Shown here: piece by piece, positions 14,043 through 30,826 of the stretch
How the letters are laid out: each line of letters starts with the position of its first letter
How positions within the stretch are numbered: the stretch's first letter is position 1
Source of the DNA: Edaphocola sp.
GTDB taxonomy: Bacteria > Bacteroidota > Bacteroidia > Chitinophagales > Chitinophagaceae
NCBI GenBank assembly: GCA_037190225.1
Contig: JBBCJL010000001.1
Span: 317,035-381,034, forward strand
Direction of reading: 5' to 3'
DNA: 64,000 bases
The notes under the pieces: generated by a model
Seen by the model: the letters and a program-made list of their open reading frames with translations, nothing else
What the model was told of the DNA's origin: nothing
Databases searched by the model: none
Translations under genes and position numbers: made by a program

Positions 14043-15236
14043 TCACCGTTTCTTATAGGCTTCCAGGGCTGCGGCAAGTATGGCCACGGCCTTTTGTATA
14101 TCTTCCTTATTGAGTACATAAGCCAGGCGCACCTCGTTCCTTCCGGAGCCCGGTGTGGCATAGAACCCGCTTGCCGGGGCCATCATGACCGTAGCTCCTT
14201 CATAGGAGAAGTCAGACAAGAGCCACTGGCAGAAATCTTCGGCATCCTCGATGGGCAGCTGGATCATAGCATAAAACGCGCCTCCCGGATTCGGCACCAC
14301 TACGCCTTCTATGGATTTTAAGCCTTCCACAAGGGTATTCCTGCGCAGCTCGTACTCCGCCAGCACCGCGTCAAAATAATCAGCAGGCAGGTCGCAGGCG
14401 GCCTCTCCCAGTATCTGCTCAAAAGTAGCGGGGGAAAGACGGGCCTGTGCCATTTTCAGGGCTGCGGCATATACGTCCTTATTCCTGGTAACCAGCGCCC
14501 CGATGCGGGCGCCGCAGGCGCTGTAACGCTTGGAGATGGTATCCAGCAGGATAGCATGCGCTTCCAGCCCTTCCAGCTCCATGACGGAAAAGTGCTGCCT
14601 GCCATCATAGCAGAACTCGCGGTAGGCTTCATCGCTGAGTATGAACAGGTCGTGCTTAAGGGCGATATTCCTTAATATTTCCAGCTCCTCGCGGCTGTAA
14701 AGGTAGCCGGTAGGATTATTGGGATTGCAGATCATGATGGCCCTGGTGCGCTCCGTGATTGCTTTTTCAAAGGCATCAATAGGCGGTAAGGCAAAATTAT
14801 CTTCGATGGAGGAAGGGATAGGGACTACCTTGATGCCGGCCGCAACGGCGAAGCCGTTGTAATTGGCATAGAACGGTTCGGGGATGATGATCTCATCACC
14901 GGGGTTCATACAGCTCATTAATGCGAAGGATATGGCTTCCGAGCCTCCTGCCGTAATAATGATATCATCCGCGGTAATGTTGATGTGCTTGCTGTTATAA
15001 TAGCGGGCCAGCTTTATCCTGTAGCTTTCAAAACCCTGACTGGGACTGTATTCCAGCACTTTGAAAGAAGCGTTCTTTACAGCTTCCAGGATGGAAGGAG
15101 GCGTTTCGATATCGGGCTGTCCTATATTCAGGTGGTACACTTTCGTACCGCGCTTTTTGGCCGCTTCGGCGTAGGGTGCTAACTTTCTTATCGGGGAAGG
15201 CGGCATTAACTGGCCACGCGTGGAAATATTAGGCAT
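14043..15236 (-). CDS. Class I PLP-dependent aminotransferase (AspC/AlaA-like)
   Basis: The NPNNPTG motif is present (ICNPNNPTGYLY), as is the PLP-lysine region SKRYSACGARIG. The length of ~397 aa is typical. Confidence 0.85.
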   Translation of the reverse strand: MPNISTRGQLMPPSPIRKLAPYAEAAKKRGTKVYHLNIGQPDIETPPSILEAVKNASFKVLEYSPSQGFESYRIKLARYYNSKHINITADDIIITAGGSEAISFALMSCMNPGDEIIIPEPFYANYNGFAVAAGIKVVPIPSSIEDNFALPPIDAFEKAITERTRAIMICNPNNPTGYLYSREELEILRNIALKHDLFILSDEAYREFCYDGRQHFSVMELEGLEAHAILLDTISKRYSACGARIGALVTRNKDVYAAALKMAQARLSPATFEQILGEAACDLPADYFDAVLAEYELRRNTLVEGLKSIEGVVVPNPGGAFYAMIQLPIEDAEDFCQWLLSDFSYEGATVMMAPASGFYATPGSGRNEVRLAYVLNKEDIQKAVAILAAALEAYKKR

Positions 15237-15316
15237 AGATCTTACAATTTCAGGTAGATAATTGTCAAACTTTTGAATTTAAGTGCGAATTTATATTAAT
15301 TTGCTGTATTAAATCG

Positions 15317-16447
15317 TTGTCAGTGAAAGTTTATATTATAGGACCGGCTCATCCGTTCAGGGGAGGATTGGCAGATTTTGATATGCGTATGGCCCGGGGC
15401 TTCCAGGAAAAAGGATGCGAGGTGCACCTGATCAATTTTACCCTGCAATATCCCTCTTTTCTCTTTCCCGGGAAAACACAATATACGGATGCGCCGGCCC
15501 CGGCCGGTCTGAACATCCGGCAGCTGATCAACTCGGTCAACCCGTTCAACTGGCTGAAAGTAGGCCGCCGGCTGCGCAGGGAACGGCCGGACCTTATCAT
15601 TGTACGGTACTGGCTGCCCTTTATGGGCCCGGCTTTCGGGACCATACTGAGGCAGGTGAAGAAAAATAAGCACACACAGGTCATCGCGATCGCTGATAAT
15701 ATTATTCCTCATGAGAAAAGGTTCGGTGATACATTATTCACGAAGTACTTTGTAAAGCCGGTGGATAAGTTCGTCTGTATGAGCAGGGAGGTAGCGGAGG
15801 ATGTGAAGCATTTCAGCGACCGGCCGGTCATGACCCTGCCGCATCCTATGTATGACATCTATGGGGAGCTGCTGGATAAGGCTGCCGCTAAAACGGCCCT
15901 GGGGCTGGGAGCGGACGATAAGGTGGTGCTTTTTTTCGGGCTGATCAGGAAATATAAGGGCCTGGATATCCTGCTTGATGCTTTTGCCGACCGGCAGGTC
16001 AGGGACAGGAATGTGAAGCTCGTCATCGCGGGGGAGTTCTATGCGGATGCCGCGGAATATGAGCGCCGGATCAGTGACCTGGACCTGGAGCCCATCATTG
16101 TGAGGGCCACGCACTTTATACCCAACGAGGAGGTCAATAAATATTTCAGCGCTGCGGATGTTGTGGTGCAACCTTATAAGAATGCGACACAAAGCGGTAT
16201 TACGCAGATAGGCTTCCACTTTTCCAAGCCGATGATCGTTACGAACGTGGGAGGTCTGCCCGAGTTTATCAGGCATAATGAGCTGGGCCTGGTGACGGAG
16301 GTGGAGGCCGCTTCAGTGGCGGCAGCTATTGCCCGGTATTTTGACGAGGCGCTGGAAGCGCCCTTTACTGCTGCAATGGAAGTGGAGAAAAAGCGATATG
16401 AATGGCCGTACTTTATCGACAGGCTGCTGGCCTATGCAAAAGCCTGA
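15317..16447 (+). CDS. Glycosyltransferase family 4 (GT-B, group 1)
   Basis: The C-terminus has a Glycos_transf_1-type region with an E-x7-E motif (GGLPEFIRHNELGLV). The start is uncertain: TTG at 15317 or GTG at 15323. Confidence 0.75.
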   Translation: MSVKVYIIGPAHPFRGGLADFDMRMARGFQEKGCEVHLINFTLQYPSFLFPGKTQYTDAPAPAGLNIRQLINSVNPFNWLKVGRRLRRERPDLIIVRYWLPFMGPAFGTILRQVKKNKHTQVIAIADNIIPHEKRFGDTLFTKYFVKPVDKFVCMSREVAEDVKHFSDRPVMTLPHPMYDIYGELLDKAAAKTALGLGADDKVVLFFGLIRKYKGLDILLDAFADRQVRDRNVKLVIAGEFYADAAEYERRISDLDLEPIIVRATHFIPNEEVNKYFSAADVVVQPYKNATQSGITQIGFHFSKPMIVTNVGGLPEFIRHNELGLVTEVEAASVAAAIARYFDEALEAPFTAAMEVEKKRYEWPYFIDRLLAYAKA

Positions 16448-16465
16448 CCTTTCTGGTGCTATATG

Positions 16466-16498
16466 ACAAAGGCTCACAGCATCGCTGTGAGCCTTTGT
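16466..16498. terminator. Bidirectional terminator between the GT4 gene and the end of the minus-strand operon
   Basis: The sequence acaaaggctcacagc-atc-gctgtgagcctttgt forms a 15-bp perfect stem. Confidence 0.7.
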
Positions 16499-16520
16499 TA
16501 TATAAATGAAGTGCAGTCGC

Positions 16521-17444
16521 TTACAGGCCGTAGGTCCTTACGATCCTGTGGTTGCTGTCAAACTCATATCTTGTCCTGGTCTGTTTCTGTACGGACTGCT
16601 GCTTTTCCAGGTCGTAATAGCTATAGGTGGCCGTAACGTTATACTTGTTGTCTCCTACCTTTTCGATAACGACATCATCGTGCTTGATATTGGTCCTTTT
16701 ATTCCAGGAGTCATCGTATAGCTTTTTGATCTCGTCAAAGGTCGGGTAGTTCACGCCCCAGTAGCGTTCCATATTCTCGGAAAAGGTACTGTAAATATTG
16801 TAAATATTCTGCCTGTACTCCGCATCCATGAGCTTTTGTAAAGTAGCGGCATTGGCTTTATCATCCTCATTTTGCGCTTTGTCTGCAGCGGCGGTAGCGG
16901 CGCTGACAGTATCTGCTACAGCTGCGGGAGGGGCGGCCGGCTCAGCAGTAGGCAGGGTATTTACTGCCGGCTGGGCAGTGATGTCCGGTATATGCGTGGT
17001 ATTATCTCCGGGAGCGCCGTTGTTATCATTCATCAGGAAATAGGCCGCCACGCCCGACAGTGCTATCAGTGCGATCACCAGTCCTGTCACCAGTCCTTTG
17101 GAGGAGCCTGAACCGGCACGCGGTTCCGGGACGAGACCGGGAGAAGCCGGTACGTTATTATAGGCGGCGGCCGGGTTAAAATCCGACTGGTTGCCGGTAG
17201 CGTCCGGCCTGGGTATATCGAACAAAGGAGTGGCCGGCTGCAGGGACTTTAAAAATGCCTGTTCCAGCCGCTGTGATTCCTGCGGGGACATCTGCCAGTG
17301 ATTGTACAATCCCTGCAGGTGCTCCCGTATGGCGCTTTCTTCTATCTGCTTCCAGGAGTCGATGATCTCCTGCGGTGCCTGCTGACCGTTTTTCTGGTGA
17401 AATAAAAATGCTATATATTGAGCTATATGCTGCTTATTGATCAT
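16521..17444 (-). CDS. Bitopic membrane protein, unknown function (operon gene 6; paralogue of 17469-18632 in the N-domain)
   Basis: The ~65-aa N-terminal domain has no signal peptide (INKQHIAQYIAFLFHQKNG...SWKQIEESAIREHL). A Pro-rich linker leads to one TM helix (GLVTGLVIALIALSGVAAYFLM). An Ala/Pro-rich spacer and a ~110-aa C-terminal domain follow. Confidence 0.6.
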   Translation of the reverse strand: MINKQHIAQYIAFLFHQKNGQQAPQEIIDSWKQIEESAIREHLQGLYNHWQMSPQESQRLEQAFLKSLQPATPLFDIPRPDATGNQSDFNPAAAYNNVPASPGLVPEPRAGSGSSKGLVTGLVIALIALSGVAAYFLMNDNNGAPGDNTTHIPDITAQPAVNTLPTAEPAAPPAAVADTVSAATAAADKAQNEDDKANAATLQKLMDAEYRQNIYNIYSTFSENMERYWGVNYPTFDEIKKLYDDSWNKRTNIKHDDVVIEKVGDNKYNVTATYSYYDLEKQQSVQKQTRTRYEFDSNHRIVRTYGL

Positions 17445-17468
17445 GTTTAAAATTTTAAGTATAGATAT

Positions 17469-18632
17469 TTAAAGAGAGTCGTACGACCAGGTAAAGTAGG
17501 TGATGTCGCCGGTCTCATCAAATTTGGCATGAAAAGAGGTATTCTCCTTATTGCAGGTGTAGAGGAAATAGGAGCCGTTTGTGAACCTGAACAGCAGGTC
17601 CGCGGCTTCAATATCTATCATATTGCCCCCTTCGGGATTTTTAACCTGCACTACCTGTGGCGGGAAATAGCGGTTCTCATCCGGCAAACCTTTAAACTTA
17701 TAGAATTTATTATCCGATAGCTTGCAGATGACACTGATCGTTTTTTTATCTTTTAAGGTATGCTTGATCACGCTGGTATAATCTGTGCTGTTATTCCCGC
17801 AGGGATTCTTGATATGCAGGCTATACAGCCTGCCGTCCATGGCCAGCGACCCGATAATGACCTTCCGGATATCCGATTTGATCAGGGCCATTTCTTTATT
17901 ATACCTGCTGATCTCGGAGAATACGGTCTTCTGGATGCTGCTGTAATCCTCGCTGTTGGTCAGGTAATTTTTGTTGACATATACCATTTTTTCCTCGTTG
18001 CCGAAAAGATAATCCTTAAAGGTGGCATCGTCCGTCAGCAGCTTCCTGCTTTCAGACACATTGCCTTCCTTATCCACCACTATATTATAGATGGCTGCGT
18101 CCGCTTCGCGCAGGGAAATGATGGAGCTGGGACCGGCGAATATATCCATCCTGCCTACATTTTCGCCGTGGATATTGCGTACAGCTACATTATCGGTAAC
18201 GCTGTACAGCCTTTGGAGCTGGTTGTATTGCCGGTTCTTATACACCACATAGCCGGCTGCAGCAAGGAGCGGTATGAGTATAAGGAGCAGCCATTTATAG
18301 CTCCTTTTACGGGCCGGGAGAGGTGGAGCGGGAGCGGTACGCTGCTGTGGTCCCGGCTGGTAGGCCGGCCTGGGCGCAGGATTCGGATTGCTGCCGGTCT
18401 GCTGTATATCGGATGTTTTTGGCGCATTCAGAAAGCTGTTGATCTCTGCCAGCAGCTGGGCTTCTGTCCAGCCCCACTGGCTGGTCATATTCCTGAGGTG
18501 ACCTGGTATCTCCGCATCTGGTATCTGCGACCAGGAGTTCAGCAGCTCTGGCGGGGGAGTTGTGCCATTACGTTTCCGGAACAGGTGCGCAATGAACAGC
18601 TTTACATTGCCCTGGTTGATTAACATGCTCAT
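17469..18632 (-). CDS. Bitopic membrane protein, unknown function (operon gene 5)
   Basis: The N-domain (INQGNVKLFIAHLFRKRNG...SWSQIPDAEIPGHL) aligns with gene 6. A Pro-rich linker leads to the TM helix WLLLILIPLLAAAGYVVY. A ~250-aa extracytoplasmic domain follows. Confidence 0.6.
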   Translation of the reverse strand: MSMLINQGNVKLFIAHLFRKRNGTTPPPELLNSWSQIPDAEIPGHLRNMTSQWGWTEAQLLAEINSFLNAPKTSDIQQTGSNPNPAPRPAYQPGPQQRTAPAPPLPARKRSYKWLLLILIPLLAAAGYVVYKNRQYNQLQRLYSVTDNVAVRNIHGENVGRMDIFAGPSSIISLREADAAIYNIVVDKEGNVSESRKLLTDDATFKDYLFGNEEKMVYVNKNYLTNSEDYSSIQKTVFSEISRYNKEMALIKSDIRKVIIGSLAMDGRLYSLHIKNPCGNNSTDYTSVIKHTLKDKKTISVICKLSDNKFYKFKGLPDENRYFPPQVVQVKNPEGGNMIDIEAADLLFRFTNGSYFLYTCNKENTSFHAKFDETGDITYFTWSYDSL

Positions 18633-19081
18633 TTGTTATAGGTTTTGTCTATGAGTTTTATCATTACATCGTTCGGGACAGGTACGGCCCCGTCCTTAAT
18701 GACAAAAATAGCATCAATTTTGTTTTCATTCTTACTATAATCAATTTTGAATCCAAAATCGTTCAGTCCATGTGCCAGGACCTTGTCATTGCCGTTAAAA
18801 AAATCCCTGGTAATGGCGCCCGAGTTGCTGAGCGTTACCTTTAAGCGGTTTTGCTCCGTGATAAGGGTAAGGCCAGTGCCATAGGCTTGCTGCAGCAGGT
18901 TGATAAAGGTGTCGGTAATGATATAGTTGAAATGTTCCCTGTTGAATTCCGTATTGGAAACATTCACTACCTTTTTGACGGCCTGCCTGTTGATGGCAAA
19001 TTTGACCCATAGCAGGCTGCCAGCTACCAGGACAACGGTGAGCAGGATAATGAATATCTTATAAGGTGCTGTATGCTTCAT
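18629..19081 (-). CDS. Small N-terminally anchored membrane protein, unknown function (operon gene 4)
   Basis: A single N-terminal TM helix (IFIILLTVVLVAGSLLWV) precedes a ~110-aa soluble domain. The start overlaps the upstream stop (TAATG), and the stop overlaps the downstream start (ATGA). Confidence 0.55.
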   Translation of the reverse strand: MKHTAPYKIFIILLTVVLVAGSLLWVKFAINRQAVKKVVNVSNTEFNREHFNYIITDTFINLLQQAYGTGLTLITEQNRLKVTLSNSGAITRDFFNGNDKVLAHGLNDFGFKIDYSKNENKIDAIFVIKDGAVPVPNDVMIKLIDKTYNK

Positions 19082-22000
19082 TATGGCTGGAAATATTGTT
19101 TGAATGATTTGGATTGAATGGTCTGGTCGATGATCTCGTATATAAGGTTCCAGTCGAAGTCCTGGGTATTATCCGTTACAAAATATAAGGCGTACACTTT
19201 GGCCTTCCCGATATGCTCTGCCTGTGTCAGGTCCTTGTCCGCAATGGTCAGTATCAGGCGCCTGGAGCTCTTCCGGCCTGACTGCTGCTCATTGATGGTG
19301 CCTGTCTTGGCATAGAAATAGTATTGCCCGTATTTGGCGGCGGTTCCCTGCAGCCTTCTGGCCGTCCCGCCGGTGATCACCTGCTTCATACCGGTAAAGA
19401 TATTGGCCGCGAGGAACTGGTTATACCTGTTGTTCCAGGTAGCGTCCACAGCCCAGGGGGACCGGGCCAGCTTCTGCGGTACAACACTGAGCTGCAGGTT
19501 ATTGTTCTGGGTGAACATGGACAGGTACATCTCTGCCATTTTATACGGTGTGATGCGCAGCGGGTAGCCGCCCAGCGCTGCCGTCATGACGCCCAGGTTG
19601 AAGTTCTGGTGTATCTCTGTCTGCGCCCTGTCGGACTGCAGGAAAAAGCTCTCTTCGGGGAAGCTCCACAGGTAGCCGGTATTCTTGTTCCTGCTGAGGA
19701 TATCGGACAGGTAGGGGTCCACGAAATGCACCCGGTCGTTGGTAGTGGCTTTCATATCCAGCTTATCCTTATCCTTGGTCCTGAGCCCGACATTGGTCTC
19801 AAAGCCGTTGGCCAGCAGGGAATTCTCATTCCCGAAATAAGACCGGTGGGTGGCGCTTTTGTCTGTCATCGGCCACTCTTTGCTGCCGTAATTCTTAAGG
19901 TATAGGGCCCGGCCCTTATAGGTTACAATGGGAAAGGTATTGTTCCGGCCCGGCTGGTCTGTCAGCACGCTGCTCAGCGTGTACTGGCTGCCCTGCAGGA
20001 AATCTTCCCTGGTATAGGAGCCCAGGAACATATACAGCGCGTGGTAAAAATTGCTGGAGTGTGCGATGAACGCGGGGATATCCATAGGCGCGTAATAATG
20101 CTCGTCATTTTTCCAGGGCTTGATCAGCCGGAGGCCTGCAAAATTCTCGCGGTCGCCTCCCGGTGCGGTAAAGATGAGGGATTCCCAGCCAGCATTGACC
20201 TGCGATGTGACCACTCCCGCGGTCAGCGCCTTGATGGACGAGCCGGGCCCGAGGTAGAGGTTCAGCAGGTTCCTGTTGCCCCACTGGTCCCTTTCGTTCT
20301 TGGCATTGCTATAAAAGAACTGCTGGCGCTGCAGCGCAAAAATGGTAGGCTGGTCATTCGGGTCTATGACCCGCCTGTTGCTCACATAATCGTTCATAAA
20401 GCGGATATGCCCATCACCATCGGCTCCTATAACGCTGAAGTTGAAATTGGTATGCCTGGTGCCGAAGGTCGTGCCGGCGCTTTTTTGTATCGCCCGGTGC
20501 ACCGCGGAGGACAGGTCGTAATCCAGCGTAATATAATTATTGGCCAGCAGCATGCTGTCATTGCTGTAAGCGCCCCGTATGGCGTTGGCATAGCTGTAGA
20601 TCCAGAAATTATCGCTCCTTAAAGGATAAATGATCCTGTAGGTGCCGTTGATCCATTTATTGGTGGCATATTTATTGCCTTCCGACTGGAAGCCCAGCTG
20701 GTAGGCCTTGCCCTGCTGGTAGATCGTGGCCATATCATCATATTGCAGGGTACCCGCATAGGAGGTGGCATTCTGTATCATGTTCTTCTGCGCGTTCTTA
20801 TAGATGAACACGCTTGTCTGTCCGGCATTGGCATTGATGATATTCAGGATGCCCACATTATCCTGGGCACCTTTCACCCAGTTTTTCGGGATCACGGCCA
20901 GCTGGTAATTGCCGGACGGGTTATGGGTAAAGAAAGGCAGTATGATACGGCGCTTCTCCTTGTCCGAATACAGCAGGGCGGTAGCGCTCCCTGCCGCCTG
21001 GATGGATTCAAGGATATTGCCCTGCCATATCTTACGGCTTTCCACGGGCGGCAGCTCCAGGTAGAGGTTTTTATTGTAAACGGCATTATACCTGCCATTA
21101 TCATAGATCATGAATAATGGATTGCTGAGCTGGAATGCTGTGGCAGGCTTTTGTACCAGGTTATCCAGTATGCTACGGGTATAATTATCCTTAACGACAT
21201 CGTTGCGGAGCGTCTGGAAATTGGTGTCCGCCGCGAGCAGTGTGATGACCTTATTATAGGTGATCTTTTCCCGCTTTGCTTCCATCCCGTCCTGTATGTT
21301 GGCCAGTATAGCGTTCAGGTCCTTTTCAACGTGCTCTTTGGTAGTCTCCATGACGATGGAGAAATTATCATTGTTCAGCTCATTTTCCCTGACGGTGGTC
21401 AGCGCGAAAACAGCGATCAGCGCAATAAAGAGTATATAGCGGATGCTGCTGCTCTGCACATCTACCTGGAAAGAATGCTTGGGCGTAGGACGCTGCATCA
21501 GGGTAACCGCCCACAGCAGGAGCGGCAGCAGGACGCTTAGCCTGCTGGTAAGGCTCAGGAAGGGGAAGTCCTGCCCGAAGAATACGAACCTGTTGGTAGC
21601 GGTAAGCCATACGAACAGGGCTATGGTGAACAGGATCAGCAGGGGGATCAGGCCGGTATAGCTGTCTATATCCCGCTGCCTTTCTTTGGTATTGACGAGT
21701 GTCAGCTGGTAAGCTATCAGGTAAAATACCATCGGTATCACCATCAGGAAGAGGATCAGGTACATGGTAAAATCGCCCCATTCGCTGATGACGTACCTGG
21801 CCAGCACCACATCCCTGGTCTGCGTGGAATAATCCACACCGATCCTGGAATGCGCCCGCAGGTTGATGGTCTCGCTGTTGTCATACTCCTTGGAAATATA
21901 GGAATTGATGAACCATTGGTTTTCCGCGGTCTCAATGATCTTCTGGGTCTTGAAGGAGGTGTATTCGTTGGCCTGCAGCAATTCATGGATAGGCTGGTAA

Positions 22001-24546
22001 ATAATGGAGGCGCGGTATTGCACGTGCTTCACCACATCTGCCATCTGGTGGTCCATCCATTTCCGGGTAACGGGAATGACCGCGAGAATGCCCGCCGCTA
22101 CTGCTATGACCATACCTGCCGACTGTACTCTTTTAGGCGCGGACAGGGCACGCAGCACAACAGCGGCGAGCGCCAATACCCCGAAGAAGACCCATACCTT
22201 GTAGGTCAGCAGGTAGTAGAACAGGGGCTTTACGGATAATAAGGTGAGGTACAGGGCCAGGGCTGTCAGCCCGTATATCCAGAAGTTCTGCGGCATCAGG
22301 AGCCTGTTGGCAATAGATACCCTGGTATTGGCCAGCGGCTTTTTAAGGAAGTTGACAAGGATGTTCTTCAGTAAAAGGAACAGGAAGAACAGGATGGCAA
22401 ATCCCCTGTCCGTCAGGCCGAAGAACACGAGGGTGGTAAGGGTGATAAAGGTGGTAGGATTATTGAAAAAGTAGTAAAGGAGCGCATGCAGGTGCTCCAG
22501 CCACTTCTTTTTGCCGCCGTACAGCAGGGGCTTGGGAGTATATTCAAAAGCGGCATTGGCTTTGCCGGAATAATACACATAGCCCAGTATAGGCAGCAGT
22601 ATGCTGACGATCCTGGTCAGGAGCTCGATATGCAGCACTTTCTTATTCAGCATAAATACCACGAAGCACAGGCCGATAAAGGCGATGTATTGCAGGTTGA
22701 TATTGCTGAGCCTGGGGCTGAGCTTCGTGAACAGGCTGCCGGCATCCGGCAGTACCCGGCTAAGCAGGCCGGTCCTGTACAGGATCAGCAATATTACCAT
22801 GCCGAGTATCCAGATGACCGTAAGCGGCAGGGGGAGCTGTATGCCGATATTGAAGTCAAAATTCAGGAGCGTATTTTCCAGCTCATGCTTGGAGATGTTC
22901 TCCAGCGGCGGGAAGGTTGCCAGGCGCCAGTACATGATGAACCTCAGCACCGACAGCGCCATGATGACCATCAGGATAATGGGCTCTATGCGTTCCAGCT
23001 TCTTGCCCGGGAAGAAGACCTGCAGGATCACGAACGAGGCGAAGATAAGCCCCAGGTAAAAAATGGACTTCTCCGTGCTGAAGCCGTTATCGCTGAAATC
23101 CCGGAGCTGGAAGAGGTACTGGGCTTTCTGGTCTTTGGTCAGCAGCGCGAACTTCCGGTCCGTCACCTGGATGGAGGCGCTGGACGCATTGAAGTCGGCC
23201 ACGTTCAGCTCTATGGCTGTATTGGGCTGCCCGGAAATATAATCTATGCTGCCGTTGACAGGCGTAGCGGTCACGAGCTGGTAGGTGTTGAATAAAAAGC
23301 CTTCCTTGAGATCATTGCCTATGATCTGCTCGAAATCATTGGTGATAAAGCGGATGTTCTTATTGCCCGCTTCCTGCTTGCCGGGACTCCTGAGCATATA
23401 GGTATTCGGGTAATCGAAATACAGCGCGGCATCCATTTTCCTGCTCTGCGGGTAGCCGGTTGCATCAAAGCGGTCTATATATAATTGCTTCCTGTAGTTG
23501 CTGAAGCCGATGTAGAACTTTTCCGCATAGGCGATGCCTGATGTGTTTTTGAGCCGGGGAGCGGCCGCCTGCCCGTCGATCTTTACCGTATAGTTGTTTT
23601 CAAAAACGTTCTTAGCAGGGAAGAATTTATACTGCTTGTCCGTATGTTCAAAATGGGCCAGGAGATAGCTGTCGCCCAGCTCCTGCAGCATGGCTTCCAG
23701 CACCTGGTAGCTTTCCGGCTTCCCGGATTCAAAGGTCCGGCCGTTCAGCAGCAGCTCAAACAGTTGCTTGCCTATGTTCAGGTCGGATGTGATGATCGTG
23801 ATGTGATCCTGGTAAGGCGCCTGCACATTCCACTGGGATAATATCTCGGGATTTTTGCCCGTCAGCGATACGGTAAATTGCAGCCCGTCCTTTTCATCGG
23901 ATACCAGCTTTCTGAAGAATCCCGGCTTATAAGGAGCCACCTGTATGGTGACGTCAAAGTCCGCGTTGGACAGCTGCAGCGACTGTTGTATGGGTTGGGG
24001 ATAAATATTGTTCAGCAAAGCGGCTTTCCTGCCGTCAACGGGTTTAAACACCGGGATAAAGAACCGGTCAAACTGTAAGGAGGCCGTGCTGCCGCTGCCC
24101 TTTACGGTAATACTGCCGGTCTGTGCATTGCTGTCCGTAGCGGTGCTTTCCAGGAACAGCTGATCCTGGAAAGCGATCCCGGCATTGCTGAGTCCATGGT
24201 AATCATTGTTTAAGAACCATGTGCGGTTGCCGAAGGGATGGGTAGTGGTATAGATGCACCATACACCCAGGATAAATACTACGGACAGCACGGCGAATTT
24301 GAGAATGCCTTCCCACTTTTTGCCGAACAGGAAGAGCTTATGGCCGATGCCGGGATCGTTGCCGATGTCCTTTTGCTTCTTCTGGAATACGGTATTGACA
24401 ATATCCTCCAGCTGGAGCTGCACCACGAAGTAAACAATGATGGCCATTATGGTCAGGCTGAGGAACCAGCTGATCACACTGCCCCAGAGTATGTTCATGG
24501 TGATGATGATACCTGCTGCCAGAGCAGTATAGATATATTTGAGCAT
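19081..24546 (-). CDS. Giant (1821 aa) polytopic membrane protein: N-terminal extracytoplasmic domain, ~14-TM core with SEDS-like features, and a C-terminal penicillin-binding-protein (transpeptidase-fold) domain
   Basis: The three PBP active-site motifs occur in order. GPGSSIKALT (SxxK) lies at 20230-20241, AHSSNFY (SxN) at 20050-20058, and FYAKTGT (KTG) at 19297-19308. A dimerisation-like segment lies upstream (ITLDYDLSSAVHRAIQ ... FSVIGADGDGHIRFMNDY). The membrane core has a ~90-aa loop followed by TRDVVLARYVISEWGDFTMYLILFLMV (21769-21789 encodes ISEWGDF). It also contains FFGQDFPFLSLTSRLSV (about 21550-21586). These two segments resemble the SEDS TDFIF..GEE.G..G and G.PLPF.SYGGSS regions. 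Confidence 0.7.
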   Translation of the reverse strand: MLKYIYTALAAGIIITMNILWGSVISWFLSLTIMAIIVYFVVQLQLEDIVNTVFQKKQKDIGNDPGIGHKLFLFGKKWEGILKFAVLSVVFILGVWCIYTTTHPFGNRTWFLNNDYHGLSNAGIAFQDQLFLESTATDSNAQTGSITVKGSGSTASLQFDRFFIPVFKPVDGRKAALLNNIYPQPIQQSLQLSNADFDVTIQVAPYKPGFFRKLVSDEKDGLQFTVSLTGKNPEILSQWNVQAPYQDHITIITSDLNIGKQLFELLLNGRTFESGKPESYQVLEAMLQELGDSYLLAHFEHTDKQYKFFPAKNVFENNYTVKIDGQAAAPRLKNTSGIAYAEKFYIGFSNYRKQLYIDRFDATGYPQSRKMDAALYFDYPNTYMLRSPGKQEAGNKNIRFITNDFEQIIGNDLKEGFLFNTYQLVTATPVNGSIDYISGQPNTAIELNVADFNASSASIQVTDRKFALLTKDQKAQYLFQLRDFSDNGFSTEKSIFYLGLIFASFVILQVFFPGKKLERIEPIILMVIMALSVLRFIMYWRLATFPPLENISKHELENTLLNFDFNIGIQLPLPLTVIWILGMVILLILYRTGLLSRVLPDAGSLFTKLSPRLSNINLQYIAFIGLCFVVFMLNKKVLHIELLTRIVSILLPILGYVYYSGKANAAFEYTPKPLLYGGKKKWLEHLHALLYYFFNNPTTFITLTTLVFFGLTDRGFAILFFLFLLLKNILVNFLKKPLANTRVSIANRLLMPQNFWIYGLTALALYLTLLSVKPLFYYLLTYKVWVFFGVLALAAVVLRALSAPKRVQSAGMVIAVAAGILAVIPVTRKWMDHQMADVVKHVQYRASIIYQPIHELLQANEYTSFKTQKIIETAENQWFINSYISKEYDNSETINLRAHSRIGVDYSTQTRDVVLARYVISEWGDFTMYLILFLMVIPMVFYLIAYQLTLVNTKERQRDIDSYTGLIPLLILFTIALFVWLTATNRFVFFGQDFPFLSLTSRLSVLLPLLLWAVTLMQRPTPKHSFQVDVQSSSIRYILFIALIAVFALTTVRENELNNDNFSIVMETTKEHVEKDLNAILANIQDGMEAKREKITYNKVITLLAADTNFQTLRNDVVKDNYTRSILDNLVQKPATAFQLSNPLFMIYDNGRYNAVYNKNLYLELPPVESRKIWQGNILESIQAAGSATALLYSDKEKRRIILPFFTHNPSGNYQLAVIPKNWVKGAQDNVGILNIINANAGQTSVFIYKNAQKNMIQNATSYAGTLQYDDMATIYQQGKAYQLGFQSEGNKYATNKWINGTYRIIYPLRSDNFWIYSYANAIRGAYSNDSMLLANNYITLDYDLSSAVHRAIQKSAGTTFGTRHTNFNFSVIGADGDGHIRFMNDYVSNRRVIDPNDQPTIFALQRQQFFYSNAKNERDQWGNRNLLNLYLGPGSSIKALTAGVVTSQVNAGWESLIFTAPGGDRENFAGLRLIKPWKNDEHYYAPMDIPAFIAHSSNFYHALYMFLGSYTREDFLQGSQYTLSSVLTDQPGRNNTFPIVTYKGRALYLKNYGSKEWPMTDKSATHRSYFGNENSLLANGFETNVGLRTKDKDKLDMKATTNDRVHFVDPYLSDILSRNKNTGYLWSFPEESFFLQSDRAQTEIHQNFNLGVMTAALGGYPLRITPYKMAEMYLSMFTQNNNLQLSVVPQKLARSPWAVDATWNNRYNQFLAANIFTGMKQVITGGTARRLQGTAAKYGQYYFYAKTGTINEQQSGRKSSRRLILTIADKDLTQAEHIGKAKVYALYFVTDNTQDFDWNLIYEIIDQTIQSKSFKQYFQP

Positions 24547-25655
24547 TATAAGTCTTTTAATTTATACCCGTGGATGATATAATTATCCAGGTCCTTTATT
24601 CCCAGCTGTTTCAGCACTGATATGGTCTGCCGCAGGTTGACCGGTGTTTTGTCCACAGGGGTGCCTTGCGTCAGCTCGGGGTATTTCTGGTGGTCGGACT
24701 TGTTCTTAAGCAGGGTATTGATATTGGTGATATCGTAATCCTGGCGTTTGGCCAGCTTTTCGCGGGTAATGGCGGTGTACTGTACGGAAGCCATGGTCAT
24801 ATATTTGAATATATTGGCAAGGTCCCCCTGGTCTATGGCGGATTGCAGGGGTAGTATGATTTCCTGGAATGCGGTCTTATAATAAGCTGTGTCCGCGTCT
24901 ATCGCCTGCTTTAGCTCCTTATGATTGCGCTTGAGGTCCGTATAGCTCTGCTTGAGTATTTTGCTGTCCTCGCGCAGCTTATCATATTTCTGCTTTAGCT
25001 GGGTGATGTTGACATTCGCTCTTGACCTGGGCTTGTCGGGCGGAGCGGCAGCTGCCTCTTCCTGCTGGAGCGGTGAGCCTCCCTGGCCGTCTTCTTCCAC
25101 CTCGATCTCTTCCGGCAGCGCTGCGGGCCTGGTGCCGGCCTTCGCCAGCAGGAACCCTGCCGCTATACCGGCTACGGGCAGCAATACGAACCAATACCAG
25201 TTGCTGCTGCCGGTGTTCGGGTCTGTGCCGGAGGCGTCCTGGGGCCTTACCAGCTTTTCCTGTTCGCTTCCTGCCTGGAGCTGCTGTTCATTTGCCACAT
25301 AAAGGGTGCGCTGCGGCAGCTCATTGGCATGGCTCAGCAGCTTTTCCAGGTTGTCGATATCGCCGTACTGCTTATACCTGGCATCTATCAGGTCCGCGGG
25401 GATCTTAAGCAGGCTCAGGATTTTCTGGTTGTCGGCCTTGTTCTTAAGCAGCACTTTGCCATCGCGTATCTCTATCGGTACCGTTTGCTTCTCATTATCT
25501 ACTGTAATAAGGGCGGACTGGTCGGTAGTGATCTTAATGCTGATATTTTTATCAAATCCGTTATCACTGATGATGAACGTATTTTCCCGGGTGGGCTGTG
25601 CCCACAGGAGTAGGGATTGTAAGGTGAGTATACTGATGAAAATGAATTTTTTCAT
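24546..25655 (-). CDS. Bitopic membrane protein with cytoplasmic coiled coil, unknown function (operon gene 2)
   Basis: A signal peptide (MKKFIFISILTLQSLLLWAQ) precedes a ~140-aa extracytoplasmic domain and the TM helix WYWFVLLPVAGIAAGFLLA. An acidic/Pro linker leads to a coiled coil (ITQLKQKYDKLREDSKILKQSYTDLKRNHKELKQAI) and a C-terminal globular part. The stop overlaps the start of the giant gene (TAATG). Confidence 0.6.
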   Translation of the reverse strand: MKKFIFISILTLQSLLLWAQPTRENTFIISDNGFDKNISIKITTDQSALITVDNEKQTVPIEIRDGKVLLKNKADNQKILSLLKIPADLIDARYKQYGDIDNLEKLLSHANELPQRTLYVANEQQLQAGSEQEKLVRPQDASGTDPNTGSSNWYWFVLLPVAGIAAGFLLAKAGTRPAALPEEIEVEEDGQGGSPLQQEEAAAAPPDKPRSRANVNITQLKQKYDKLREDSKILKQSYTDLKRNHKELKQAIDADTAYYKTAFQEIILPLQSAIDQGDLANIFKYMTMASVQYTAITREKLAKRQDYDITNINTLLKNKSDHQKYPELTQGTPVDKTPVNLRQTISVLKQLGIKDLDNYIIHGYKLKDL

Positions 25656-25853: not shown

Positions 25854-25896
25854 AAGGATTCCGGTGAGCGGCCGCCGGCCGCTCACCGGAATCCTT
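25854..25896 (-). promoter_or_regulatory. 20-bp perfect inverted repeat overlapping the stop codon of the ASKHA gene (attenuator or terminator-like hairpin)
   Basis: The arms are aaggattccggtgagcggcc (25854-25873) and ggccgctcaccggaatcctt (25877-25896), with a 3-nt loop. No U tract follows on the minus strand. Confidence 0.5.
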
Positions 25897-28591
25897 AGAA
25901 ATACAAGGGGCCTGAATTGCCGCCGGTATTATTGTTGTTGTTATTGTTGCTTTTATTGTCTGCCGGGGGCTGGATGTCAAAGTACATCGGACCGTTGGCC
26001 GGCGGCGCGGGGGGCGCAGGGCTCAGGTCGATAGCTTTCTGGAACGTATGTATGAACTCTTCATCTATATAATTAGGGAACAGGGAAGGAATGACCATAT
26101 TGAGCTCGATATCCTCCGTATCGAAGATCTCCTGGAGCTCTATGATATTCTTAACGATGCCGTTCTCCAACTTCCGGACCAGGTAGCCTTTTTCCGTGAA
26201 CATCAGGTTGGCTTCCTCCCGGATGCCCGGCTGCTGGCTGTAGATGCTGTTGCCTACGATCTTATAGCGCTTGCCGCCTATGAGTATCTGGCTGTTGGCC
26301 AGGGAGTCGTAGTGCAGGCTGGTATGCGTGGTGGGTATGACCGCTTCCACGTTTTCAAGATCATTCAGCTCATTGAAAAATATCTTCAGCAGGCGGGACT
26401 GTATGCTCACTTTTGGCTTGCCTGGTGCTGCCGGGGCTTGTCCCGTCTCGGCAGCGGGCAGCTTGGGACGGCTGATGACCTGTATGGGATAGCCTATTTT
26501 TTCCGCATTCAGGCGTACGGAATTGTTGAACACGCCTTTTATACAGATATCCTTCAGCTCGTTGCCGTTCAGCAGGTGTACCCTGGACGCAGGGATATCC
26601 AGCTCCTGCTCCAGCTGCTTCCGTACCTGCTCTTCCAGGGGCTTGAAAAGGAAGGCCCTTCCGGACAGGATCACGCCGCCGCAGCTGAACTGTTCCGCAT
26701 TCTTTTTCACAAGCCTGATATTCTGCACCACGCGGGTGGCGATCACTTTGCAGGTTTCCGTGATGTAACCGTAGAAATCGCTGATATTCTCAATGCCGGT
26801 CAGCAGGTTTTTGAAGGTGCTGGTAATATCAGCGCGGCCTTCTTCGGTCAGGTTCCTGAAGTTGGTATCGCCCACGCTGGCCTGCTGCCACTGGCTCAGC
26901 ACATAGGGGCTGTTGTCCGTATATTTGAATTTCAGCCTTTCTATCTGGGCAAAAATATTGTTCTTAAGCTCCAGGTCATTGCTGTTCAGCACATTGATGA
27001 TCTTTTCCTTGATGAATTTAAACGCTTCGTGCTGGTTGGACGCATTGGCCCTGATATAATGTAATATGGTCTCGAAAACGGCAAAGGTGATCAGGTTGCC
27101 CGCGCCCGCAAAGCCGTTGCGGTACACGGTCTTGATGTCGAAAACATTACGGGCGCCGGTCCGGATGATGGAAAGGTCCGTTGTGCCTTTACCGGAATCT
27201 ATAATGACATATTCCCGGTTCTTGTCGATCTGGGTATCGTTCTTATTGATATAGCCCAGGAAGGACGCATCGCTTTCCGATATGGTAATGATCTCCCAGC
27301 TCAGCAGCTTGCCTTTGTACTCATGGTCTGCAAGCGACTGGAAGATATTGTGCAGGATCTGCTGGGTGCTTTTGATGTCGTAAAAATCATAAATATTGGG
27401 TACCAGCAGGATGAAGCGGATCTTACGGGTGGCATCATAGGAAATGAGGAATTCCTTTTTCAGGAAGGATTCTATCATCACCCTTAAGATGGTATTGTAC
27501 ACCTTGTTCTTCATGACGCCCAGGCTCACATTGATATCGTAGCCCTCCTTGTCGATGTTGAAGTTGATGCCGGAAAAGAGGCTGTCGTACTTCTGGGTGA
27601 TCTTGAGGTTCGGGAGCTGGTGATACTTATTTTGCGTCAGCACCTGGTAGCCGTCATGCGTATTGACCAGCATCTTCAGGTTATGCGCCACATCGGCTAT
27701 AAAGAGATCCTTATAGATATTGTCGTACTGCCCGCTCTGGTTCTCCTTCAGGAAGAAGATGGATTTATAGAAATTGGTGTTCTTCTCTTCCTGGTAATAG
27801 CTGGCCTGCTCCTCTTTGCTGATCCAGCCCTGGGATTTGTTGAATGCCAGGATGTTTTTGAACAGGTTCTCTATTTCCGGGCGCATCTGCTGGTGATGCT
27901 CACCATACTGGTAGCGCTTGATGGCCATCTGGCTGGCTTCGGAGCCGAAATCCAGCGCAATGCCCAGGAACTGCTCGGGGTGCGCGAAGCTGATGGTGGT
28001 CTTATTGCTGAACTGCTGTCCTTCCGTTTCCAGTGTCAGCTCCAGGGTAAGGTCGGGAAAGGCGGCATCCAGCAGCTTATTGAAAGCGCCGGTGATATAG
28101 CCGGTCACCAGCATGGCGCCGTTGCTGTACCTGTGCCGGATGAATTTGATGGTATCCTGCCACACGCCTATGATCTCGGAATCGGATTGCACGGCTTCCA
28201 CGGTGTTCTGGGCTGTTACCTTTTCCTTTTTAGGGGCTGATTTGAACAGCTCCAGGTCCTCGTAGCTGTACACCGGGGGCGGTTCGGGCGCTTCCTGCTC
28301 CGGCTCGGGCGCTTCATATAAAGGTTGCTTTTTCCTGGGGCCGATGTGCAGGCGTAAAGTGTCAGACTCCAGGATGCACTGTACGGAACAGTCCTTGATA
28401 TCAAGATCGGGGTGTTGCGGGATGAAGCTTTTTAAAATGCTGTCCGCCTGCAGCTCCGCAATATTGAAATGGGCGTTCCTGTGCGCCTCTACTATATATT
28501 TGAATACGGTGATATCATCCTTCTGGTGATATAAATTGATGATTTTTTCTCTTCTGTCGTTAATAATGATCGGTAAGCTATAAAAGTCCAT
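25895..28591 (-). CDS. Divergent actin/Hsp70-superfamily (ASKHA-fold) ATPase, 898 aa (operon gene 1)
   Basis: Three ordered motifs are present. The phosphate-1-like motif is LGIALDFGSEASQMAI (about 27929-27961). The phosphate-2 motif is EYVIIDSGKGTTDLSII (DSGKGTTD at 27177-27200). The adenosine-like motif is CGGVILSGRAFLF (about 26661-26689). There is no signal peptide or TM helix. The protein has a ~200-aa N-terminal extension and a Pro-rich, poly-Asn C-terminal tail (SPAPPAPPANGPMYF...NNKSNNNNNNNTGGNSGPLYF). Confidence 0.65.
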   Translation of the reverse strand: MDFYSLPIIINDRREKIINLYHQKDDITVFKYIVEAHRNAHFNIAELQADSILKSFIPQHPDLDIKDCSVQCILESDTLRLHIGPRKKQPLYEAPEPEQEAPEPPPVYSYEDLELFKSAPKKEKVTAQNTVEAVQSDSEIIGVWQDTIKFIRHRYSNGAMLVTGYITGAFNKLLDAAFPDLTLELTLETEGQQFSNKTTISFAHPEQFLGIALDFGSEASQMAIKRYQYGEHHQQMRPEIENLFKNILAFNKSQGWISKEEQASYYQEEKNTNFYKSIFFLKENQSGQYDNIYKDLFIADVAHNLKMLVNTHDGYQVLTQNKYHQLPNLKITQKYDSLFSGINFNIDKEGYDINVSLGVMKNKVYNTILRVMIESFLKKEFLISYDATRKIRFILLVPNIYDFYDIKSTQQILHNIFQSLADHEYKGKLLSWEIITISESDASFLGYINKNDTQIDKNREYVIIDSGKGTTDLSIIRTGARNVFDIKTVYRNGFAGAGNLITFAVFETILHYIRANASNQHEAFKFIKEKIINVLNSNDLELKNNIFAQIERLKFKYTDNSPYVLSQWQQASVGDTNFRNLTEEGRADITSTFKNLLTGIENISDFYGYITETCKVIATRVVQNIRLVKKNAEQFSCGGVILSGRAFLFKPLEEQVRKQLEQELDIPASRVHLLNGNELKDICIKGVFNNSVRLNAEKIGYPIQVISRPKLPAAETGQAPAAPGKPKVSIQSRLLKIFFNELNDLENVEAVIPTTHTSLHYDSLANSQILIGGKRYKIVGNSIYSQQPGIREEANLMFTEKGYLVRKLENGIVKNIIELQEIFDTEDIELNMVIPSLFPNYIDEEFIHTFQKAIDLSPAPPAPPANGPMYFDIQPPADNKSNNNNNNNTGGNSGPLYF

Positions 28592-29581: not shown

Positions 29582-30826
29582 ATGAAAAATATTAAGATCA
29601 ACAGAACGGTATTGCTTATTTTGCTGGGTGTGCTGGCGGCGCTGGGACCCTTTACAATAGATATGTACCTGCCGGGTTTCCAGAAGATCGCGGCAGACTT
29701 CGGGACGGATGAAAAGCACGTTGCCTTTACGCTGACCTCCTATTTCATCGGTATAGCGGCCGGCCAGCTTATTTACGGTCCTATAGTGGATAAATACGGC
29801 CGAAAGCGGCCCCTGATCGCCGGCCTCGGCATTTATATCCTTGCGGCTTTGGGCTGCGCGCTGTCCCCAAATATAGAATCAATGATATTGATGCGGCTGC
29901 TGCAGGCGCTGGGCGGCTGTGTGGGCATGGTGGCTTCCAATGCCATTATCAGCGATGTATATGAAAAAGAGCACCGTGCCCGGGCATTCTCTTCCATCAT
30001 GCTGGTAATGGGCGTTGCGCCGCTGATAGCGCCGAGCGTGGGCAGCCTGCTGCTTGAAAGGACCGGCTGGAATTATATATTTTACTTCCTTGCGGCATTT
30101 GCGACCTTCGTAGCTGTACTGATCATGGTATTCCTGCCGGAAACGAGCCGGTATATGCACACCAGGAAGCTGAGTGTCAGGGAAGTGGGTCGGGGGTATA
30201 TGGATATCCTTAAGAACAGGACCTTCCTGCTGTATACGCTTGCCGGGAGCATTGCGATGTCGGTATTATTTGCCTACATTTCTTCTTCCTCTTTTGTGTT
30301 CATTACCCTGTACGGGCTGGATAAGGCCACTTTCTCCTTCATCTTTGCCGTGAATGCGGCAGGGCTGATCACCGGCAGCTCGCTGAACGGTATCGTTACA
30401 AGGTATATCAACTATATACGGCTTACGGGGATAGTCTCCTGGCTGTTGGGGGCGGTATCCTTCCTTGTAATGATGATGCTCATCCTGTATCCGCAGCTGC
30501 CGTATCAATGGATGGTAGCCGGTATCTTCACCATCCTGTTCCTTGTGGGCTTTATTACGCCGAACGTGACGGCGGCTTCACTGGCTCCTTTTACCGGTAA
30601 TGCCGGTGCCGCTTCGGCATTGGGCGGCGCTATGCGTATGGGGGTCGGCGCTATGGTGGCTGCTGCGATAGGTATATTCCAGGGAGCATCTGCCCTGATC
30701 ATGTTCGTGACGATCTTTGTGCTGGCTGTATTGACGATCCTGCTGCTGATCCCTGCTGCCGGCACTACGATATCCAGCGTAGTGCCATCGCCGGGAGTAG
30801 AGCCGGGTACGGGGGAATCAGTCTAG
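29582..30826 (+). CDS. MFS multidrug transporter, Bcr/CflA family
   Basis: The protein has 12 TM helices. The N-terminal LGPFTIDMYLPGFQKIAADFG is typical of Bcr/CflA, and motif A is GPIVDKYGRKRPLI. Confidence 0.8.
   Translation: MKNIKINRTVLLILLGVLAALGPFTIDMYLPGFQKIAADFGTDEKHVAFTLTSYFIGIAAGQLIYGPIVDKYGRKRPLIAGLGIYILAALGCALSPNIESMILMRLLQALGGCVGMVASNAIISDVYEKEHRARAFSSIMLVMGVAPLIAPSVGSLLLERTGWNYIFYFLAAFATFVAVLIMVFLPETSRYMHTRKLSVREVGRGYMDILKNRTFLLYTLAGSIAMSVLFAYISSSSFVFITLYGLDKATFSFIFAVNAAGLITGSSLNGIVTRYINYIRLTGIVSWLLGAVSFLVMMMLILYPQLPYQWMVAGIFTILFLVGFITPNVTAASLAPFTGNAGAASALGGAMRMGVGAMVAAAIGIFQGASALIMFVTIFVLAVLTILLLIPAAGTTISSVVPSPGVEPGTGESV

Follow-up and report, generated by a model that had tools for sequence, protein, structure and literature searches.

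A giant membrane protein of Bacteroidota, candidate for a single-chain and highly diverged SEDS-class B PBP synthase

The locus and its protein family

The window analyzed here, a stretch of 64,000 nucleotides from Edaphocola sp. (contig JBBCJL010000001.1, positions 317,035 to 381,034), carries on its minus strand the gene of a giant membrane protein, which is probably a single-chain and highly diverged synthase that joins a glycan polymerase of SEDS type to a class B penicillin-binding protein (PBP). Six minus-strand genes lie together here, this one being the third, and their products comprise 898, 369, 1821, 150, 387, and 307 residues, respectively. The original prediction, made from the sequence alone, had described it as encoding one polypeptide of 1821 residues, and the open reading frame (ORF) list of the window indeed reports a single ATG-initiated ORF at this place.

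19081..24546, minus strand: whole ORF, 1821 residues, stop codon included (ORF list and full-length orthologues)

More than 40 full-length orthologues, of 1790-1880 residues, are found in Taibaiella, Edaphocola, Emticicia, Lacihabitans, Sediminibacterium, and Saprospiraceae genomes. Isolates of Taibaiella, Edaphocola, or Emticicia are available in culture. One orthologue (L001), 97% identical and also of 1821 residues, is assigned to 'Bacteroidetes bacterium 47-18', where it is encoded on a contig of 389 kb. A misassembly of separate genes, which the original prediction had considered as a possible source of error, is ruled out by this orthologue and by the dozens of full-length homologues. 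An exhaustive HMMER search with a profile of the transmembrane (TM) core against 1.84 billion representative sequences returned 330 clusters at 50% identity, 286 of which at E<=1e-10. Nearly all of these clusters contain proteins of 1650-2090 residues in which the core occupies an equal relative position, and the architecture therefore defines a large family. It occurs mainly in Bacteroidota, and its members are annotated as 'hypothetical protein' in NCBI records.

One homologue, from Sediminibacterium (OZ257253.1, 10253-14278; L040), is called as a 1341-residue protein that aligns from residue 411 of the query on. It may lack the N-terminal module, have another start, or contain a frameshift. 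Four loci on contigs of metagenome-assembled genomes (L017, L024, L032, and L041) carry the Bacteroidota-type cluster under the labels Bifidobacterium, Cyanobium, or Chitinophaga pinensis, and these labels look like binning or labelling errors rather than true hosts.

Overall layout of the 1821-residue protein

Family-averaged hydropathy and the secondary structure of AlphaFold2 (AF2) models agree on the layout of the protein. Three N-terminal TM helices are followed by a β-rich soluble domain of ~390 residues, and then by ~14 more TM helices, with a loop of ~100 residues (830-925) after the tenth of them. The last TM helix directly precedes a C-terminal region of ~770 residues. This parse, given below, agrees with the original prediction of ~14 helices interrupted by a long loop, of an N-terminal part made of a few helices and a ~400-residue domain devoid of any recognized motif, and of a final helix placed where a class B PBP has its anchor. 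Of the three strings quoted in that prediction, ISEWGDFTMYLILFLMV corresponds to residues 920-936, GQDFPFLSLTSRLSV to residues 991-1005, and IRYILFIALIAVFALTTV, the final helix, to residues 1035-1052.

24241..24546, minus strand: three N-terminal TM helices, residues 1-102 (hydropathy; AF2 helices 2-21, 24-56, and 65-102)
23077..24240, minus strand: β-rich, predicted periplasmic domain, residues ~103-490 (AF2, predicted local distance difference test (pLDDT) mostly 80-93)
22711..23076, minus strand: TM4-6, residues ~491-612, with a predicted periplasmic loop containing the invariant residues R535, W540, R541, and F545-P-P (family invariance)
21472..22710, minus strand: putative SEDS-like glycan-polymerase module, residues ~613-1025, TM7-TM16, with loop 830-925 as the equivalent of the SEDS extracellular loop 4 (hhalign)
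21382..21459, minus strand: last TM helix, residues ~1030-1055, at the position of the class B PBP anchor (hydropathy and AF2)
20527..21381, minus strand: helical and large β-rich region at the position of the class B PBP pedestal, residues ~1056-1340, boundaries approximate (AF2 secondary structure)
19084..20526, minus strand: transpeptidase-fold domain, residues ~1341-1821, with a ~100-residue insertion between SxN and KTG (AF2, Foldseek, Pfam, and hhalign)

If we assume that the PBP domain is periplasmic, the last helix should run from the inside to the outside. Together with the positive-inside rule, this would place the N-terminus in the cytoplasm, as well as the Lys-rich loop of residues 46-80. 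The loop 830-925, the GQDFPFLS loop, and residue D713 (see below) would then all face the periplasm like their SEDS counterparts, and so would the N-terminal β-rich domain. The latter (~103-490) did not return any relative with Pfam, with a profile search of the PDB, or with Foldseek, and the TM4-6 region was aligned to SEDS by no tool and is family-specific.

The C-terminal domain

The C-terminal domain is, in our view, very likely homologous to class B PBPs. An AF2 model of residues 1030-1821, built on a 47-sequence alignment, has a mean pLDDT of 80.9 and a predicted TM-score (pTM) of 0.75. Foldseek analysis of this model against the PDB reports class B PBPs for all 50 of the matches listed, with probability 1.0, E-values of 1e-10 to 3e-8, and a target-normalised TM-score that reaches 0.66. 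These matches include PBP3 of E. coli, P. aeruginosa, and A. baumannii, PBP2 of N. gonorrhoeae, PBP2a of methicillin-resistant S. aureus (MRSA), PbpA of M. tuberculosis, and PBP5 of E. faecium, and the alignments with full-length PBP3 and PBP2a span 560-870 columns.

The three motifs of the transpeptidase active site are present in canonical order, and arithmetic on the frame of the ORF returns the positions given for them by the original prediction:

20230..20241, minus strand: SxxK, S1436-S-I-K1439, inside an invariant GPGSxxKP (family alignments)
20050..20058, minus strand: SxN, S1497-S-N1499 (family alignments)
19297..19308, minus strand: KTGT, K1747-T-G-T1750 (family alignments)

The spacing is of 61 residues between S1436 and S1497 and of 250 residues between S1497 and K1747. 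The insertion that had been deduced from the latter distance is borne out by the AF2 model, in which the 250-residue gap holds low-confidence insertions. Chance could account for motifs this short if they stood by themselves, but all three are retained unchanged by 41 genomic orthologues, with identities as low as 23%, by 26 distant members (16-37% identity), and by a relative from Aminicenantes.

Sequence profiles point in the same direction. The Pfam Transpeptidase model (PF00905) matches six orthologues (P0018, P0028, P0029, P0031, P0035, and P0039) with scores of 24-27 bits for a gathering cutoff of 22.1, as well as 9 of the 26 distant members. The matches in the orthologues cover just residues ~134-273 out of 299 of the profile, that is the KTG-proximal half, and the query itself did not return any hit. 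Alignment of the family with E. coli PBP2 by hhalign pairs GTA...YAKTGT with GTA...AKSGT. The PBP dimerisation domain (PF03717) has no match in the query, in which the pedestal-like region holds a large extra β block. The class-B-PBP-like nature claimed for the C-terminus by the original prediction is therefore supported at the level of the modelled fold and of the motifs.

The membrane core

The original prediction had also likened the membrane core to SEDS proteins. Nothing came from the query alone, and the relationship emerged from profile-profile alignment with controls and from distant family members that bridge the two groups. Using hhalign, a profile of the N-terminal and TM regions did not return anything against the single sequence of E. 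coli RodA, and a more diverse family profile gave P = 0.085, 0.19, and 0.47 against single RodA, FtsW, and WaaL sequences, with a register that was suggestive and not significant. A real SEDS profile was therefore needed. As a search for SEDS homologues gave near-identical Enterobacterales proteins, diversity was taken instead from plasmid- and chromid-borne genes. The resulting alignment comprises 19 authentic SEDS sequences: RodA and FtsW of E. coli, RodA of T. thermophilus as found in the PDB, 10 taxonomically diverse plasmid- or chromid-borne SEDS proteins, and a few from Enterobacterales. On the family side, a non-redundant core profile of 135 sequences was used.

With these two profiles, hhalign reports scores of 39-41 and P=1.6-3.7e-4. 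The alignment is collinear over residues 619-1025 of the family and 51-366 of RodA, and its confident core pairs residues 899-1000 with RodA residues 240-342. The scores of the real and control comparisons are as follows:

Family versus SEDS, real: score 41.3, P=1.6e-4
Family reversed versus SEDS: 17.7
Family versus SEDS reversed: 17.5
Both sides reversed: 35.7
60 block-shuffles of the family: mean 21.8, standard deviation (SD) 1.8, maximum 26.8
60 block-shuffles of SEDS: mean 19.3, SD 3.6, maximum 29.2
Family versus a 7-sequence WaaL profile: 20.3, P=0.12, off-register
SEDS versus WaaL: 28.6
Family versus 7 proteobacterial SEDS only: 35.4

The bridging members, which belong to the family with E-values of 1e-33 to 1e-49 in the TM-core profile search, were scanned with a hidden Markov model (HMM) built from the authentic SEDS sequences only. 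P0158 scores 29.2 bits, and scores of 16-21 bits are obtained for P0172, P0167, P0181, P0128, and P0097. The SEDS region covered is the same in all six cases. The maxima are 5.5 bits for reversed sequences and 12.7 bits for a WaaL HMM. Among curated models, P0158 is matched by Pfam FTSW_RODA_SPOVE (PF01098; 2.4e-4) and by the NCBIfam models ftsW (2.3e-6, model residues 113-339 out of 357), rodA (1.8e-4), and pbp2_mrdA (1.9e-8). P0181 and P0172 are matched by NCBIfam ftsW, and P0128 and P0167 by pbp2_mrdA. The same scan did not report any unrelated family at E<=0.01, all others having E>=0.06. Furthermore, the IMG database independently named P0128 'FtsI/penicillin-binding protein 2 / FtsW'. 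Three independent sets of models, namely our SEDS HMM, Pfam PF01098, and NCBIfam ftsW/rodA, thus agree in region and register on these proteins, which form graded sequence intermediates between SEDS and the query, as seen in two blocks:

Block 1: SEDS LPEaHTDFIFAiiGEELG; bridging member YPTSmtDcVFSiflLsEHG; query YSTQTRDVVLARYVISEWG
Block 2: SEDS NiGm..g.LPvtGvpLPLvSYGGS; bridging member ANlGl.PFTGQNiPLLsL.S; query TNRFVFFGQDFPFLSLTS

The two stretches that had been singled out as recalling the most conserved SEDS blocks (ISEWG... and GQDFPFLS...) are those that align with the HTDFIF..EELG and LPLxSYGGS blocks of SEDS. From these alignments, homology of the membrane core with SEDS appears highly likely, the core being a remote and separate branch rather than a canonical member, given that the thresholds of the curated models are not reached.

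Putative counterparts of the RodA functional residues

Twelve residues of the core are invariant across the diversity of the family: R535, R541, D713, G715, R845, D912, E922, N985, F989, G991, Q992, and P995. Several of them can be mapped onto RodA. For the E. coli protein, experiments have shown D159, R210, and D262 to be important, and R210 is needed for glycosyltransferase activity (PMC10449877).

22408..22410, minus strand: D713, invariant, in TDRGF; pairs with D159 of SEDS QPD159LG (SEDS-HMM alignment of the bridging member P0172, moderate confidence)
22012..22014, minus strand: R845, invariant; pairs with RodA R210, while P852 pairs with P217 (hhalign confidence 6)
21781..21813, minus strand: D912...E922 (TRDVVLARYVISEWG), invariant; putative counterpart of SEDS HTD262FIFA..E270ELG (hhalign confidence 7)
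21553..21576, minus strand: G991-QDFPFL-S998; putative counterpart of SEDS G333vpLP337LvS340, in the last periplasmic loop (hhalign confidence 9)

Within the last of these segments, G991, P995, and S998 pair with RodA G333, P337, and S340. The original prediction had suggested looking for the SEDS catalytic aspartate in the long loop, and D912, which aligns with RodA D262, is the candidate for this role. The position of D713 depends on the method: a low-confidence upstream part of the hhalign alignment maps it onto the QPSE region, in conflict with its mapping onto QPD159LG through the bridging member. The pairing with D159 was adopted, with moderate confidence. Between D713 and the large loop, the query contains 40-65 more residues than the bridging members, corresponding to a TM hairpin. 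Inspection by eye had also suggested that W540..FPPLE549..K553 might correspond to W102..QPSE114..K117 of SEDS, a pairing that no tool reproduced, hhalign placing other residues there with a confidence of 2 or lower.

The conserved gene cluster

The other five genes of the cluster surround the giant gene as follows, and four further genes flank the cluster:

25895..28591, minus strand: 898 residues, upstream; candidate ATPase of the actin/Hsp70 fold (ASKHA), with DFGSExSQ, DxGKGTTD, and GxxLxGR (motifs and synteny)
24546..25655, minus strand: 369 residues; signal peptide or TM helix, second TM helix, and a charged, probably coiled-coil C-terminal part (ORF list and synteny)
18629..19081, minus strand: 150 residues; single N-terminal TM helix (ORF list and synteny)
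17469..18632, minus strand: 387 residues, bitopic; N-terminal cytoplasmic domain, Pro-rich linker, TM helix, and C-terminal domain of ~255 residues (synteny)
16521..17444, minus strand: 307 residues, bitopic; N-terminal domain in common with the 387-residue protein (synteny)
11327-13930, plus strand: flanking topoisomerase with Toprim domain and C-terminal repeats
14043-15236, minus strand: flanking class I/II aminotransferase
15317-16447, plus strand: flanking glycosyltransferase of family GT4
29582-30826, plus strand: flanking transporter of the major facilitator superfamily (MFS)

The order 898-369-1821-150-387-307 is kept in Taibaiella, Edaphocola, and more broadly Chitinophagaceae, in Emticicia (Cytophagales), and in other Bacteroidota, while the flanks differ: none of the topoisomerase, aminotransferase, GT4, and MFS genes is syntenic with the cluster in other genera. 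The stop codon of the 369-residue gene overlaps the start of the 1821-residue gene (at 24546), and the stop of the latter overlaps the start of the 150-residue gene (at 19081), which suggests translational coupling within an operon. A scan of the cluster for sigma-70 promoters and terminators, which does not cover Bacteroidota promoters, was uninformative. The five other products did not return any match with curated families, and no helix-turn-helix (HTH), MreC, or MreD domain was detected in them.

The 898-residue family displays four invariant motifs, DFGSExSQ, DxGKGTTDxS, RxGFxGAGN, and GxxLxGR. Its profile against the PDB reports only MreB, at a non-significant E=1.3, and its sub-threshold Pfam matches are with actin-fold families only (DDR for 16 out of 30 proteins, MreB_Mbl for 10 out of 30, and FtsA for 1 out of 30). 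Alignment with E. coli MreB by hhalign gives P=0.0012 over 75 columns, in the phosphate-2 region. This protein is therefore a candidate ATPase of the actin/Hsp70 fold, and might represent a novel actin-like protein with a cytoskeletal or organising role. The 387- and 307-residue proteins share an N-terminal domain of ~60 residues (FIAHLFRKRNG..PPELLNSW and YIAFLFHQKNG..PQEIIDSW). In both, a Pro-rich linker leads from this domain to a TM helix, beyond which lies a periplasmic domain. In several genomes, just one of these two genes seems to be present.

In the Aminicenantes locus (L069, JAPKZK010000041.1), the giant gene is flanked by neighbours with ASKHA signatures, namely a 688-residue protein that has a faint HSP70 match and begins with ...DLGSE..., and a 1019-residue kinase fusion. 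The giant homologue (15185-20251) is followed there by two large Ser/Thr protein kinase genes, one product having C-terminal ASKHA-like motifs and the other an FGE-sulfatase domain, and a 1307-residue Transpeptidase-domain protein is encoded at the edge of the locus.

Weighing the possible functions

We consider that the 1821-residue protein is a single-chain, highly diverged SEDS-class B PBP synthase, working by the mechanism proposed below, with a probability of about 0.6. It is somewhat favored that its substrate is peptidoglycan, through lipid II, and that both of its sites are active, and the system is probably an undescribed accessory wall-building machine.

Several results weigh against this assignment. 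The query did not match Pfam, NCBIfam, or PDB sequences (phmmer), even at E<=1, and did not match PADLOC either; a 37-sequence family profile returned no hit with PDB sequences, and neither the family consensus nor hairpin-deleted constructs matched Pfam. The AF2 model of residues 1-1060 has a pLDDT of 77.3 and its lowest confidence (<50) in the conserved loops 835-910 and 986-993. Foldseek analysis of this model does not report any SEDS structure among the 50 matches listed, with a best probability of 0.28; the TM-scores are below 0.1, thus noise, and the SEDS structures 8tj3, 6bar, and 8bh1 are in the library. This outcome does not count as a refutation in our view, given a multidomain query of which the key loops are modelled with low confidence. 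The hhalign probability of the family-SEDS alignment is just 37-50%, and the SEDS matches of the bridging members are all below curated cutoffs, the best member reaching 20.7 bits for a PF01098 cutoff of 26.4, and the equivalog cutoffs of NCBIfam TIGR02614 and TIGR02210 (~337 bits) being far off. The block of the SEDS extracellular loop 2 that comprises W102, QPSE114, and K117 has no confidently aligned counterpart in the family (hhalign confidence <=2). Lastly, so large a divergence leaves room for a substrate other than lipid II.

The structural and curated-model negatives, together with weak matches of Wzy_C and TgpA_N in one or two of the 26 distant members, might mean that the resemblance to SEDS is convergent or compositional, the core being a transporter or another enzyme of GT-C or Wzy/O-antigen-ligase type, and the PBP-like domain alone being homologous to known enzymes. 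Such a convergence is very improbable, considering that the SEDS score lies 6-11 SD above the block-shuffled backgrounds, that the three sets of models match the bridging members in the same region and register, that graded intermediates exist, and that the functional residues coincide. A WaaL/Wzy identity of the core was rejected in particular, as the WaaL profile scores at background and off-register, the WaaL HMM does not exceed its 12.7 bits, and Wzy_C is found weakly in 1 of the 26 members. With the architecture and ancestry retained, the protein could instead act on another undecaprenyl-linked glycan (capsule, exopolysaccharide, or S-layer-linked), its PBP-derived domain being an acyl-transferase or peptidase with a non-peptidoglycan target, or a tether to the wall. 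The extreme divergence, the lack of a family match for the query, and the unrecognizable substrate-binding block of extracellular loop 2 would fit this possibility, as would the invariant residues of the family's own (R535, W540, R541, N985, and Q992), the novel ~390-residue periplasmic domain, the insertions in the PBP domain, the Wzy_C match in one distant member (8.7e-4), and the GT4 gene that adjoins the cluster downstream in the window, though not syntenic elsewhere. It is nevertheless unlikely, because the residues that are invariant are those of SEDS catalysis and pyrophosphate binding along with the full D,D-transpeptidase triad, because the WaaL profile and HMM are at background, and because the conserved cluster includes neither sugar-nucleotide nor flippase genes; furthermore, the pairing of SEDS with class B PBPs is otherwise known from peptidoglycan synthesis only (PMC10449877).

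Degenerate SEDS and PBP domains could also have given rise to a non-enzymatic scaffold, sensor, or regulator, for instance a sensor of β-lactams or muropeptides, or an envelope-spanning structure that anchors the actin-like ATPase. In favor of this are the strong divergence of the sequence, the large extra domains and multiple bitopic partners that scaffolds typically have, and the Ser/Thr kinase neighbours in Aminicenantes, which hint at signalling. The catalytic-position residues of both modules are, however, invariant across 16-97% identity, which is unexpected for pseudo-enzymes, and Pfam and NCBIfam report no output domain (protease, kinase, or HTH) in the protein, making a non-catalytic role improbable. 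A BlaR-type sensor was rejected on this last ground and on the Foldseek neighbours, which are class B PBPs and not BlaR/MecR sensor domains or β-lactamases.

Proposed mechanism

Returning to the single-chain synthase, a mechanism can be drawn by analogy with RodA-PBP2 and FtsW-FtsI. The ten-TM SEDS-type module (~613-1025) would be followed by the anchor helix, the pedestal-like region, and the transpeptidase (1056-1821 for the latter two), all facing the periplasm. The polymerase module would bind an undecaprenyl-pyrophosphate-linked precursor, most likely lipid II, and extend a glycan strand, with D912 as the putative catalytic base and R845 and D713 participating in substrate binding. S1436, assisted by K1439, S1497/N1499, and K1747-T-G, would then be acylated by a D-Ala-D-Ala stem peptide, and cross-linking of the strand would follow. 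The 610 N-terminal residues and the four bitopic partners may regulate or position the enzyme, and the candidate actin/Hsp70-fold ATPase may act as its organiser on the cytoplasmic side, in the way of MreB, RodZ, and MreCD in the Rod complex.

At a more tentative level, and less likely than the synthase itself, the cluster might be a self-contained and evolutionarily independent morphogenetic machine, a 'second elongasome' of Bacteroidota with relatives in Aminicenantes, in which the synthase would be driven or positioned by the large new ATPase via RodZ-like bitopic adaptors and would build a specialised wall structure or another polymer.

Relation to known systems

SEDS-class B PBP pairs are core cell-wall synthases and major antibiotic targets. 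The 1821-residue protein shares with RodA-PBP2, FtsW-FtsI, and SpoVE-SpoVD the order of the modules (SEDS-type polytopic core, TM anchor, pedestal-like region, and transpeptidase), the predicted topology with both active sites in the periplasm, the counterparts of RodA D159, R210, D262, E270, and of the LPLxS loop, and the SxxK, SxN, and KTG(T) motifs. It differs from them in being so diverged that it fails every curated model, and in the large insertions of its pedestal and transpeptidase regions, such as the 250 residues between SxN and KTG. The original prediction had regarded a covalent fusion of this size with an N-terminal module as unusual. Size and module are unusual indeed: a plain SEDS-PBP fusion comprises ~1000 residues, compared with 1821 here and an additional N-terminal part of 610 residues (6 TM helices and a novel periplasmic domain). 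The fusion itself is not unprecedented, since natural single-ORF SEDS-PBP fusions are known and engineered ones are functional (PMC10449877).

As in the Rod complex, the gene is associated with bitopic membrane partners and with the gene of a cytoplasmic actin-fold protein, here a candidate. In contrast, the partners are not detectably homologues of MreB, MreC, MreD, or RodZ, and the 898-residue ATPase, which resembles MreB at the motif level only, is far larger than MreB. The 387- and 307-residue proteins have the layout of RodZ (small cytoplasmic N-terminal domain, linker, TM helix, and periplasmic domain), an architectural analogy for which homology is not demonstrated. WaaL/Wzy enzymes (Wzy_C, PF04932), the other GT-C(B)-type enzymes that depend on undecaprenyl pyrophosphate, are also polytopic and also contain three TM helices after a large periplasmic loop, but no His/Arg ligase motif was identified in the family. 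O-antigen ligases and Wzy_C enzymes are not known to be paired with PBPs.

Full-text literature searches did not find any description of the 1821-residue family or of its cluster. The novelty lies in a large branch, unannotated and extremely diverged, that has an extra N-terminal module of ~610 residues, carries insertions in its two enzyme modules, and is encoded in a conserved operon whose other products are novel. The Pfam and NCBIfam models at present miss this whole branch of the SEDS and PBP families. Having diverged to the limit of detection while keeping its catalytic residues, the family represents a natural experiment on which positions are indispensable, and it offers a ready-made single-chain complex for structural work. 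In the environmental Bacteroidota that carry it, the cluster may serve as an accessory system of wall synthesis, equipped with an actin-like organiser of its own.

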